From positions 36,638 to 100,637 of the forward strand of contig JADFDC010000007.1 in the NCBI GenBank assembly GCA_018263115.1: a stretch of 64,000 bases of DNA, given 5' to 3'. This DNA is from Thiobacillus sp. (GTDB lineage Bacteria > Pseudomonadota > Gammaproteobacteria > Burkholderiales > Thiobacillaceae). Within the stretch, counting starts at the first letter, position 1; the number at the start of each line of letters is the position of its first letter. The notes beneath the pieces are model-generated. The model was given only the letters and a program-made list of their open reading frames with translations, ran no database searches and was not told the DNA's origin. Both the position numbers and the translations under genes were made by a program. Positions 29,385 through 32,902 of this stretch are shown piece by piece.

Positions 29385-29732
29385 ATGAAAAAAGTGCAAC
29401 AAGGTTTTACCCTGATCGAACTGATGATCGTGGTTGCCATTATTGGTATTCTGGCAGCGATCGCTGTGCCCCAATACCAAAACTACACGAACCGTTCCAA
29501 GATCAGGGCGTGTTTGTCCGAGGCTACAGGCATTGCACGTGGTGCCGTAGCCGCTACTGCTGATAATAACGTCGCCATGATGCCGGCTGACGTTTGGAGT
29601 TCCTGCTCTGCGGATACATATGATGCTACGGCTGTGCTGCCTGCAGGCGGTACTTTTACGGCGACCGCTCGCGACACTGCTGCAACTACTATTACTTGTA
29701 CTAACAACACTGGTGTTTGTACCCACCCGTAA
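29385..29732 (+). CDS. type IVa pilin (PilA/PilE-like), short 115-aa form
   Basis: Class III signal [34 protein letters not shown] and a C-terminal Cys pair (CTNNTGVC). AGGAGA Shine-Dalgarno sequence upstream. Confidence 0.9.
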
Positions 29733-29758
29733 TTTTGGGTTGTATTACGGCTGAACAA

Positions 29759-29782
29759 GCCCCGCTTCGGCGGGGTTTTTTA
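29759..29782 (+). terminator. intrinsic terminator after the pilin gene
   Basis: GCCCCGC-TTCG-GCGGGGT followed by TTTTTT. Confidence 0.75.
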
Positions 29783-29793
29783 CTGGATGATAC

Positions 29794-30243
29794 CTAATCA
29801 TCCTTCGTAACAATTTGTCTGATTGTTTCACTTGCAAACCCACGGCCTTGCATGAATCGAAATTGTCGGGCTTTCTCATTTTGATTGGCTGGCTGAACGC
29901 CAAATTTCTTTCGCCAAACATCACGAGCCCGTTCCAGTTCTGTTTCATTTGCCTCCTCAAGCGTTTTTTGGACGACTGATTCCTCCACACCCTTCTGGCG
30001 AAGTTCGTATGCCAGTTTTTGATTGCCAAACCGCGCCTGCTTTTGCGTAACGTAATTCTCCGCGAAGCGCTGGCTGGATAACCAGCCGCGCTGGCTGAGC
30101 TCATCCAGGGCGGGTTTTATCTCTTCTTCGGTATAGCCAGCATGCAGAAGCTTGCGGGTGAGTTCAAGATGTGTGTGATCGCGCCGGGCCAAGTAGGCCA
30201 AGGCCCGGTCGCGAATGGGTGGAAGGGGTTTGTCGTTTTGCAT
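29794..30243 (-). CDS. recX: recombination regulator RecX
   Basis: Immediately downstream of recA. Helical-repeat protein with ALAYLARRDHT..EL..KL pattern. Confidence 0.9.
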   Translation of the reverse strand: MQNDKPLPPIRDRALAYLARRDHTHLELTRKLLHAGYTEEEIKPALDELSQRGWLSSQRFAENYVTQKQARFGNQKLAYELRQKGVEESVVQKTLEEANETELERARDVWRKKFGVQPANQNEKARQFRFMQGRGFASETIRQIVTKDD

Positions 30244-30255
30244 AGTTTTCTACGC

Positions 30256-30304
30256 TCTCAAAAATCCCCCGGCGCTTCGCGCCACCCCCTTTATCAAGGG
30301 GGTG
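30256..30304 (-). terminator. two hairpins between recA and recX (possible partial terminator)
   Basis: On the minus strand: CACCCCCTT-GATA-AAGGGGGTG, then GGCGC-GAA-GCGCC followed by GGGGGATTTTT. Attenuated read-through from recA into recX is known in E. coli. Confidence 0.45.
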
Positions 30305-30316
30305 AAAGGCGGGCGG

Positions 30317-31357
<1,041 letters not shown>

Positions 31358-31389
31358 GGTGGTCTCCTGTTTCATTGAATGGTGATCGA

Positions 31390-31418
31390 ACTTTAGGCGA
31401 TATTTTTATCCATGTCAA
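31390..31418 (-). promoter_or_regulatory. candidate sigma-70 promoter of recA
   Basis: On the minus strand: TTGACA - 17 nt - TAAAGT, about 30 nt upstream of the Shine-Dalgarno sequence. Confidence 0.5.
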
Positions 31419-31503
31419 TATAAAATATCATATGTATAAAAAATACAAACTAGATATGTTTTATGTTGCATGAGTATCTATAATGGCTGGACGGAGAAGC
31501 CTG

Positions 31504-32400
31504 ATGATTACAAAAGACAAAATGCGCCTGGACCTGAAGTGGGCCGCCTTGCAGCGGCTGAAGTTCATCGAGATCATGAGCTGGTATGCCGGGGTGGTGA
31601 CCCGAAGCGATCTGGCTAGAGCGTTTGGCATGTCTGATCCGGCGGCAACCAAGGACATCAAGCTGTACAACGAGCTGGCGCCAGGCAATCTGGGATATAG
31701 CCAGGCCGTGTTCGGTTTTGTGCCGACCGAGCGTTTCAGTCCCATGTTCGCCAATCTGGAACCGGCCGCCGTCCTGCCGGTTTTTGCGGCCAATGAGGCC
31801 ACGATGGGCGGGCCGTACGGCGACACGCTGATTTACGGCCTGGCTGTTGAATCGCTGCCCTTGCCGGCGCGGCTGCCAGACAGGCATGTTCTGGCGCAAA
31901 TAACCCGCGCCATGCGTGGGTGCAGGAAGCTGAAAGTAAGCTACCGCTCACTTTCGGGCCGTGAAGGTTCTAACCAGCGCATTCTGGAACCGCATAACCT
32001 GGTCAATACCGGCACGCGTTGGCATGTGCGTGCGTATAGCGAGGAAACCTACGATTTCCGGGATTTTGTGCTGTCGCGCTTTGCCGGGGCGGAATGCCAG
32101 ATCGAACCGGCGGAATCCAGTGTGCTATACGATGAGGACTGGGTGGAAACCCTGCTACTGAAACTGGGACCGCATCGCATGCTTGATCCTCAAAAGCGTG
32201 AAAGCCTGCTGGTTGATTATGGCGCGGTTGATGGGGTGATCGAGATCGAGGTCAGGCGAGCATTGCTTGGCTATGTGCTGCAACGTCTCAATGTCGATAC
32301 GTCGCTGGAAGGTACAATGAATCCTGCCGCTTATCCGCTGATGCTGCTGAACCGGGACGATATCGAGCCATTCGCGGCGTGGGTGTTTGATCAGGAATAG
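31504..32400 (+). CDS. HTH + WYL domain transcriptional regulator
   Basis: N-terminal winged-HTH-like VTRSDLARAFGMSDPAATKDIKLY. Central WYL-type segment KLKVSYRSL...RILEPHNLVNTGTRWHVRAYSEETYDFRDFVLSRF, with a C-terminal extension. The start is taken at ATG 31504 (GGAGAAG Shine-Dalgarno sequence), because a TATAAT box overlaps the first ATG at 31483. Confidence 0.8.
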   Translation: MITKDKMRLDLKWAALQRLKFIEIMSWYAGVVTRSDLARAFGMSDPAATKDIKLYNELAPGNLGYSQAVFGFVPTERFSPMFANLEPAAVLPVFAANEATMGGPYGDTLIYGLAVESLPLPARLPDRHVLAQITRAMRGCRKLKVSYRSLSGREGSNQRILEPHNLVNTGTRWHVRAYSEETYDFRDFVLSRFAGAECQIEPAESSVLYDEDWVETLLLKLGPHRMLDPQKRESLLVDYGAVDGVIEIEVRRALLGYVLQRLNVDTSLEGTMNPAAYPLMLLNRDDIEPFAAWVFDQE

Positions 32401-32404
32401 GTAC

Positions 32405-32902
32405 TCAGGACAACAACTCAATCAATCCACGCAACGCAGAAGCCACCGCGCGGGAACGGATTTCCTCGCGGTCGCCGGAGAGGCGGCAAGTGGTCGAAAC
32501 GGGCGCCATGCCTTCAATGCACCAGCCAATGCAAACCATGCCAACGGGTTTTTTTGGGGTGCCTCCGCCAGGCCCGGCAATGCCGGAAATGGACAGCGAT
32601 GCTTGCGCCCGGCTGTTTTTCAGTGCGCCCGCCGCCATCTCCAGCACGGTTTCCTCGGAGACGGCGCCAAATTGCTCAAGTACCACGGCGGAAACACCCA
32701 GCATGTCCTGCTTGGACTGGTTGGTATAGGTGACAAAGCCGCGGTCGAACCAGGCTGACGAACCAGGAACTGCCGTGATGCGTTCCGCGGTCCAGCCGCC
32801 AGTACACGATTCCGCCGTGGCCAGCATCATGCTTTTGGCTTTCAGCAACCTGCCAACCTGTTCGGCAAGTTGATAGAGTTCGTTGTCGCTTACGCGAGCC
32901 AT
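32405..32902 (-). CDS. pncC: CinA C-terminal domain protein / nicotinamide-nucleotide amidohydrolase PncC
   Basis: ATAESCTGGW...PGSS.WF..G.V.Y.N..K...LGV ... SGIAGPGGG motifs. The start is taken at MARVSDNEL (32902); the upstream part of the listed ORF overlaps pgpA. Confidence 0.85.
   Translation of the reverse strand: MARVSDNELYQLAEQVGRLLKAKSMMLATAESCTGGWTAERITAVPGSSAWFDRGFVTYTNQSKQDMLGVSAVVLEQFGAVSEETVLEMAAGALKNSRAQASLSISGIAGPGGGTPKKPVGMVCIGWCIEGMAPVSTTCRLSGDREEIRSRAVASALRGLIELLS

Follow-up and report, generated by a model that had tools for sequence, protein, structure and literature searches.

In a 64-kb stretch of Thiobacillus sp. DNA (contig JADFDC010000007.1, positions 36,638 to 100,637; here called the window, to which all positions refer), the gene of a WYL-domain regulator lies divergent from recA, and the two genes share a control region of 146 bp. 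The analysis of this locus showed that it is a real, conserved regulatory module. Sequence comparison and structure modelling indicate that the regulator is a member of the BrxR/CapW repressor class, with winged helix-turn-helix (wHTH), WYL and WCX domains, and not of the activator class of DriD, PafBC and DdaA. The shared control region carries an array of short operator-like elements of the form RTA-(A/T)5-TAY, placed on both promoters, and has no canonical SOS box. Direct control of recA by the regulator, in whichever direction, is considered likely, while the complete mechanism favoured here, in which single-stranded DNA (ssDNA) releases an autoregulated repressor of recA-recX, is given about an even chance of being correct. 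In the initial annotation of this DNA, a damage-responsive switch acting directly on recA had been proposed on the model of DriD and PafBC. The switch itself gains support from the conserved pairing with recA; the subfamily was the wrong one, and the direction of regulation was probably wrong as well.

The Pfam scan of the 298-residue protein returned the WYL domain alone (E 1.7e-13), in line with the earlier identification of the gene as a WYL regulator, and the precomputed domains of an identical database protein and of all relatives give the order WHD_BrxR / WYL / BrxR_CTD (PF26109/PF13280/PF26107). The protein could be aligned from end to end with BrxR (7T8K), CapW (7TB5, 7TB6 and 9C5G) and E. 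fergusonii BrxR (7QFZ), with E-values from 7e-38 to 1e-29. The best match in the PDB was Acinetobacter BrxR 7T8K (E 7e-38, 31% identity over the full length). The match to PafBC (6SJ9) was limited to the WYL domain (E 4e-4 with a single sequence), and DriD gave no sequence match at E<0.01 in the search against solved structures. An AlphaFold2 monomer model of the regulator (pLDDT 82; its TM-score of ~0.53 reflects domain orientation) was compared by Foldseek, which favoured BrxR/CapW (E ~1e-23) over PafBC (1e-9) and DriD (1e-8). The kinship to DriD and PafBC that had been suggested, together with the structure prediction meant to examine it, thus turned out in favour of BrxR/CapW: PafBC is related by its WYL domain and DriD by the fold alone. 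No NCBIfam model matched the regulator, and among the PADLOC models only generic CRISPR-associated WYL models did.

Three features of the BrxR/CapW structures, the three-domain layout, the RWHVR motif and the four ssDNA-contact residues, are all found in the Thiobacillus protein. The RWHVR motif is said by Blankenchip et al. to be a signature of CapW/BrxR repressors. The usual genomic context of the class, the head of a phage-defence system or island, is not found; the neighbours are recA-recX and cinA-pgpA-thiL. By sequence, structure and motif comparison the protein falls outside both the DriD/DdaA and the PafBC groups. In the crystal structure of CapW with ssDNA, the ligand is contacted by S144, R164, R168 and R184 (Rl CapW; PMC11662680). 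These residues align to S149, R172, R176 and R192 of the Thiobacillus regulator, positions with little or no variation in the subfamily, which suggests an intact ligand pocket in a protein that appears to have a DNA specificity of its own.

The control region was studied in an alignment of 83 Thiobacillaceae spacers (81 distinct), anchored on the recA -35 hexamer. Between 29600 and 33000 of the window, the promoter scan gave a single sigma-70-like match, the recA promoter TTGACA-17-TAAAGT (31418..31390), and the pattern of TTGAC[AG], exactly 17 bp and TAnAnT is kept in 82/83 spacers. The TATAAT box of the regulator recurs in 80/83, mostly 30-35 bp ahead of the start codon. Both promoters had already been recognised in the initial annotation (31390-31418 and 31479-31484) and are retained. 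Because its -35 hexamer is the consensus and stands at optimal spacing, the recA promoter should need no activator, and this sequence argues for negative control of recA. Most Thiobacillus spacers measure ~190 bp, compared with 146 bp in the window. In the longer ones, a GC-rich hairpin (GCAGGCGnnGnnGCGTCTGC) is found where the recA 5' untranslated region is predicted to begin (L071:5809-5850, L001:5820-5870); the lineage of the window (window, L004, L005) lacks this hairpin. No known RNA element was found in the recA/regulator spacer.

A canonical SOS box is missing at recA, as had been observed before: CTGT-N8-ACAG occurs nowhere in the 64 kb, and none of the 83 spacers contains a match with one mismatch or fewer, the best having at least two. 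The proposal of LexA-independent recA control had this absence as its basis and is indirectly supported by it. Continued control of recA by LexA, exerted at a divergent, non-canonical LexA site of the spacer with the WYL protein as an accessory, is regarded as highly improbable. Other groups have non-canonical LexA motifs (PMC8565304). In the spacer, TGT-N9-ACA at 31433-31447 is wrongly spaced for a LexA site and lacks conservation, and no LexA homologue was found in the window or in any fetched locus, a search covering local sequence only.

The conserved feature of the spacer is a series of 11-bp elements, RTA-(A/T)5-TAY, located at 31400-31464 with spacings of 18, 18 and 17-18 bp and designated E0 to E3. 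Their positions relative to the transcription start sites (TSSs), both of which are deduced from the -10 boxes, are listed in Table 1; E0 and E1 bracket the recA -35 hexamer. Among the 81 distinct spacers, E1 is complete in all, in its TA..TA flanks as well as its A/T centre, while both TA of E2 are kept in 73 and its A/T centre in 79. E0 is conserved in its left half only (RTAyATTT; left TA 81/81, right TA 5/81) and E3 mainly in its right half (tTTGTAT; right TA 79/81, left TA 35/81). E1 is also the sole exact ATA-W5-TAT in the 64 kb. The tandem pattern of two elements gave three overlapping matches, all at this site; none is expected in 64-kb shuffles, and 0.05% of the shuffles of the spacer itself contain it. 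A search for further targets found no other tandem pattern in the 64 kb. For the strict single element, 99 copies in 15.5 kb of spacers stand against 4 in 833 kb of flanks.

The same layout, a -35 hexamer (TGTCAA) followed by elements at 17-18 bp, is found in the distant lineages in which the regulator is linked to recA. In one Thiobacillaceae clade and several distant lineages, E1 and E2 have T-tracts (T5) at their centres instead of A-tracts (A5), with unchanged TA flanks. Such a switch of the centre between fixed flanks fits a read-out of DNA shape, in particular of a narrow minor groove. As candidate sites of the BrxR/CapW kind, the elements lie on both promoters and have a symmetry of only 3 bp per side. 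Palindromic half-sites of 10 bp, as in BrxR, were looked for by eye at E1/E2 and rejected, no symmetry being seen past the RTA/TAY triplets. A 17-nt direct repeat, CATGTCAATATAAAATA / CATATGTATAAAAAATA, was detected by the repeat finder at 31411-31445 (76% identity, 18 bp apart) and was the first sign of the E1/E2 periodicity.

Two dyads in the spacer had earlier been put forward as notable features. The first, GATATTTT-N15-AAAATATC, is situated at 31399-31429 as described; the second, TGTAT-N5-ATACA, is present but one base off, its actual site being 31433-31447. Both are at chance level, and the relatives do not conserve either of them as a dyad. Of the dinucleotide shuffles of the spacer, 10% contain a perfect inverted repeat of 8 bp and 20% a 5-N5-5 dyad. 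Among the distinct spacers, the first dyad is complementary at 7/8 positions or better in 16/81 (usually 4-6/8) and the second at 4/5 or better in 7/81 (usually 1-3/5). Shuffle frequency and poor conservation rule out both as operators. In the lineage of the window the first dyad consists of E0 (T-tract) and E1 (A-tract), and it is lost where E1 is a T-tract.

Conservation of the gene pair was assessed by a homologue scan of one genome per GTDB species, which gave 317 relatives, the best 80 of which were examined. These best 80 of 317 all belong to Thiobacillus/Thiobacillaceae (65-87% identity), and in every Thiobacillaceae locus among them with enough flanking sequence, recA lies divergently and immediately upstream of the regulator, usually with cinA-pgpA downstream of the latter. 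T. denitrificans, T. thioparus and T. sedimenti have this arrangement. The divergent pair is also present in six distant lineages, at protein identities of 65% (L096, an Ectothiorhodospiraceae metagenome-assembled genome, MAG), 47% (L084), 44% (L085), 42% (L086, a gammaproteobacterial MAG), 40% (L090) and 38% (L088/L094). The synteny of the WYL gene with recA, which the initial annotation had named as a check, is therefore kept both within and beyond the family. In these six lineages the recA partner is retained and the remaining neighbours differ: recX-alaS-lysC-csrA are found beyond recA, a TonB receptor or a PAS histidine kinase stands between the regulator and cinA, and in one lineage a dinB-like polymerase gene lies downstream of the regulator.

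Several neighbourhoods in this sample deserve separate mention. In the 65%-GC gammaproteobacterial lineage of L088 (1532-2698) and L094 (9122-10288), recA, the divergent WYL gene and a same-strand gene of a dinB-like Y-family polymerase occur together, with a Ku gene ~3 kb beyond the dinB-like gene. The gap before the dinB-like gene in L094 was considered as a candidate second site, and no convincing E-type array was found in it. A homologue with 36% identity (P0129, L091:1-231) is divergent from an sbcD-like nuclease gene (MLTLFHTADWHLGH...), a further DNA-repair neighbour just outside the recA-linked group. In Vibrio vulnificus (L093:6001-12909, ~36% identity) the homologue is a textbook BrxR directly before brxA-brxB-brxC-pglX, with a HipA toxin gene nearby, and it marks the boundary between recA-linked and defence-linked members. 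The recA-linked proteins appear to be the nearest relatives of classical BrxR in a different context. An orthologue with 59% identity (P0331 of L098, a genome with 41% GC) does not adjoin recA; a direct repeat of ~230 bp, CAATGCTATTGATAG..GGTAGAATCAGTGCGGATTATG (L098:3700-3930 and L098:5035-5270), stands on either side of it, as if the gene had been moved or duplicated by recombination.

These data also bear on a reading in which the regulator controls itself alone or a distant regulon, possibly of defence genes. The adjacency to recA would then be inherited gene order, and the A/T elements would be UP elements, curved DNA or sites for IHF or Fis. The sampled genomes are mostly close relatives, so that conservation is partly phylogenetic inertia, and the L098 orthologue has left recA, which also speaks against a dedicated recA repressor. 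A/T tracts immediately 5' of a -35 hexamer are typical of UP elements, and TATCACCTACATA is loosely like the IHF core (7/9 positions, by eye). On the other hand, the pairing with recA persists at 38-65% protein identity where all other neighbours have changed, and the relocated L098 orthologue keeps an E-like element, ATAGATATTAT, just before its own TATAAT. With a regular 18-bp period the elements range from the promoter spacer (E0) as far as about -76 (E3), which is not the geometry of UP elements, and their TA..TA flanks are invariant while the centres flip. This reading is accordingly considered unlikely.

In the favoured mechanism, dimers of the regulator would sit, in the absence of damage, on the RTA-W5-TAY elements of the shared control region, ~18 bp apart. 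With E0 and E1 on either side of the -35 hexamer of an intrinsically strong recA promoter and E3 over the -35 region of the regulator itself, both genes would be held down; the regulator would thus repress rather than activate. The presumed signal is ssDNA, which after damage would enter the WYL/WCX pocket and force the wHTH domains apart as in CapW, so that repression would be lifted. Transcription of recA-recX and of the regulator would rise together, and the surplus of regulator would then restore repression. Unlike with LexA, induction of recA would not need RecA itself.

Precedents for these steps exist within the class. In the BrxR-DNA structure, two half-sites surround an A/T-rich centre of 5 bp at which the minor groove is narrowed, and the protein makes direct contact with few bases; the Acinetobacter BrxR site spans -51 to -27, over the -35 hexamer (PMC9122589). 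With E1 at its centre, a footprint of 25 bp would reach from about -52 to -28. The elements described here are built on this logic, and E1 is placed like the site of BrxR (Acinetobacter sp. NEB394, 7T8K/7T8L; E. fergusonii, 7QFZ), with which the regulator also has the wHTH-WYL-WCX layout, the RWHVRAY motif and probable autoregulation in common. Differences are found as well. BrxR heads a same-strand BREX or defence operon, whereas the Thiobacillus gene forms a monocistronic unit divergent from recA and has no defence genes in its vicinity. In the recognition helix, Acinetobacter BrxR has SRQQ and the Thiobacillus protein SDPAATKD, and one 25-bp pseudo-palindrome is replaced by four elements with an 18-bp period. 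CapW, associated with CBASS (7TB5, 7TB6, 9C5G), is of the same family, and all four of its ssDNA-contact residues are kept in the Thiobacillus protein. Acting at a bidirectional promoter, this repressor is induced by zeocin and by mitomycin C, and it leaves the DNA when a 7-mer ssDNA binds to the WYL pocket (PMC11662680); its release by ssDNA follows DNA damage. In contrast to the regulator studied here, CapW has an immune operon under its control and a site that consists of one palindrome within a 30-bp probe, and nothing ties it to recA transcription.

Several observations weigh against this repressor mechanism. E0 and E3 are just half-conserved, and the elements are not palindromic beyond their outer triplets. 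Footprints of 25 bp as in BrxR would overlap at an 18-bp period, which would require either that adjacent dimers occupy different helix faces or that the protein binds in another mode. E1 and E2 change the polarity of their A/T tracts in concert, agreeing in 75/81 Thiobacillaceae spacers and in five of the six distant lineages (one is ambiguous); this resembles direct repeats and would not be expected of a symmetric dimer. A/T tracts that precede a -35 hexamer can also serve as UP elements without any regulator. Two further points favour an opposite direction of control: the centre of E1 near -40 is also the position of a class II activator, and the WYL regulators so far shown to act on recA, PafBC and DdaA, are all activators (PMC13010146, PMC12392091).

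The regulator could accordingly act directly on recA as a damage-activated activator in the manner of DdaA, DriD and PafBC, with the ssDNA-bound form recruiting RNA polymerase from E1/E2; the ssDNA pocket is common to activators and repressors. Nevertheless, the protein clusters with the repressors BrxR and CapW, and the activators DriD, DdaA and PafBC are reported as monophyletically separate from the CapW/BrxR group (PMC12392091). Because the match to BrxR/CapW extends over the full length, the repressor precedent fits better than the activator one. The consensus -35 hexamer at 17 bp makes an activator unnecessary in nearly all spacers, and the sites of E0, within the promoter spacer, and of E3, over the -35 region of the regulator itself, are occluding positions. 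Neither CGAC-N7-GTCG nor CGWCA-N5-TGWCG, the DriD/DdaA motifs, occurs between 31074 and 32746, an interval that includes the spacer. Activation is for these reasons judged improbable, and repression is preferred.

The comparison with the activators can be extended. DdaA of Acinetobacter/Moraxellaceae is also a WYL regulator; the recA promoter is among its direct targets, and it takes the place of LexA control in the damage response. It differs from the Thiobacillus regulator as an activator of ~335 residues from a clade next to DriD, with a large regulon and the motif CGWCA-N5-TGWCG, and the DdaA papers give no pairing of its gene with recA. DriD of Caulobacter and PafBC of Actinobacteria have ssDNA-sensing WYL domains and govern LexA-independent damage responses, with recA under the control of PafBC. 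Unlike the regulator proposed here, both are activators; PafBC is a tandem HTH-WYL-WCX heterodimer or fusion which uses the RecA-NDp motif, and PafBC promoters lack a -35 hexamer, while the recA promoter here has the consensus one. In its proposed role the regulator would resemble LexA, an autoregulated repressor on the recA promoter that is removed after damage. It is unrelated to LexA and has no S24 peptidase domain, the recA promoter has no CTGT-N8-ACAG site, and the signal of the regulator would be directly bound ssDNA and not RecA-stimulated self-cleavage.

Table 1. Features of the recA/regulator locus in the window
Feature	Position	Strand	Residues	Remarks
WYL regulator gene	31504..32400	+	298 aa	Pfam WYL; PF26109/PF13280/PF26107; PDB matches; AlphaFold2 model and Foldseek
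wHTH (approximate)	31504-31728	+	1-75	
Linker helices		+		between wHTH and WYL
WYL domain (approximate)	31924-32109	+	141-202	
WCX/BrxR_CTD (approximate)	32116-32397	+	205-298	
Recognition-helix motif SDPAATKD			44-51	
RWHVR motif			172-176	R172-W-H-V-R176
recA	30317..31357	-		probable target gene; ATG start at 31357, preceded by AGGAG; Pfam RecA 1.7e-148
recA -35 hexamer TTGACA (consensus)	31413..31418	-		TTGACA in 77/83 spacers, TTGACG in 5/83
recA -10 hexamer TAAAGT	31390..31395	-		promoter scan; predicted TSS near 31383
Regulator -10 box TATAAT	31479-31484	+		predicted TSS near 31491; GGAG ribosome-binding site at 31493-31496
E0 ATATTTTTATC	31400..31410			with G31399: GATA-TTTT-TATC; in recA promoter spacer, centre ~-22
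E1 ATATAAAATAT	31418..31428			abuts recA -35; centre ~-40 from recA TSS
E2 ATAAAAAATAC	31436..31446			centre ~-58 from recA TSS, ~-50 from regulator TSS
E3 ATATGTTTTAT	31454..31464			over regulator -35 region, centre ~-32; ~-76 from recA TSS
recX	29794..30243	-		downstream of recA; RecX_HTH1-3
cinA/pncC-type nicotinamide-nucleotide amidase	32405..32899	-		convergent with the WYL regulator; Pfam CinA 7e-57, NCBIfam PncC_domain

The open reading frame map and Pfam agree with the earlier placement of the WYL gene between recA-recX and cinA/pncC-pgpA-thiL. Its start at 31504, as previously taken, is also accepted, because the ATG further upstream, at 31483, shares bases with the TATAAT box and the homologues begin at the position equivalent to 31504. 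The gene had been described as inserted into a run of minus-strand genes, which holds in an ancestral sense alone: the arrangement is fixed across the Thiobacillaceae and is not a recent event. A recent insertion or foreign island was ruled out by this fixed synteny and by the GC content of the gene (53-66% per 100 bp), which matches the flanks. The spacer itself has 34% GC, and the 100-bp windows around it otherwise have ~53-66%. On the minus strand past the WYL gene, cinA/pncC is followed by pgpA, thiL, nusB and rib genes. Since other genes separate the WYL gene from cinA in L085 and L086, cinA/pncC is a neighbour outside the recA/regulator module.

A GC-rich hairpin followed by a T-run, a terminator-like site, lies between the recA stop and the recX start (30270-30284, minus strand). 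Its appearance is that of an attenuator or partial terminator, by which the ratio of recA to recX would be set, and recX is probably co-transcribed with recA by read-through. At 29700-29780 of the plus strand, directly after a type IV pilin gene (29385-29732), Rfam matches to isrB, rsmX and istR were obtained with 21-27 bits, all below the gathering scores; they most likely represent just a terminator hairpin.

The initial annotation had held that no switch of this kind was described. As a general idea it has been published, since WYL regulators acting directly on recA are known from PafBC and, in 2025-2026, from DdaA in Acinetobacter/Moraxellaceae (PMC13010146, PMC12392091); the statement stands for the BrxR/CapW clade, as no member dedicated to recA with an operator array was found in full-text searches of the literature. 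In the published division, the activator clades (PafBC, DriD, DdaA) serve LexA-independent damage responses and the repressor clade (BrxR/CapW) serves phage-defence operons. The present locus places a member of the repressor clade at recA, conserved across a whole family and several other lineages.

A broader proposal, tentative and on balance doubtful, is that a branch of BrxR/CapW took over the role of LexA at recA in the Thiobacillaceae and in several sulfur-oxidising Gammaproteobacteria (MAGs labelled Ectothiorhodospiraceae, Thiotrichales and others). A direct sensor of ssDNA would there repress recA-recX and itself through a multi-site array, with induction independent of RecA. The locus is a lead relevant to SOS-independent damage responses and to the origin of defence-system regulators, and the candidate operator array offers a compact, testable system for the reading of A/T-tract DNA shape by a BrxR-type dimer. 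If confirmed, the module would represent a second and mechanistically opposite mode of WYL control of recA and a RecA-independent route to recA induction. It would also give an entry point to the question of whether regulators of defence islands derive from a housekeeping damage sensor or the reverse. If the broader proposal is true, this clade could mark an evolutionary bridge between the control of damage responses and damage-triggered immune control.

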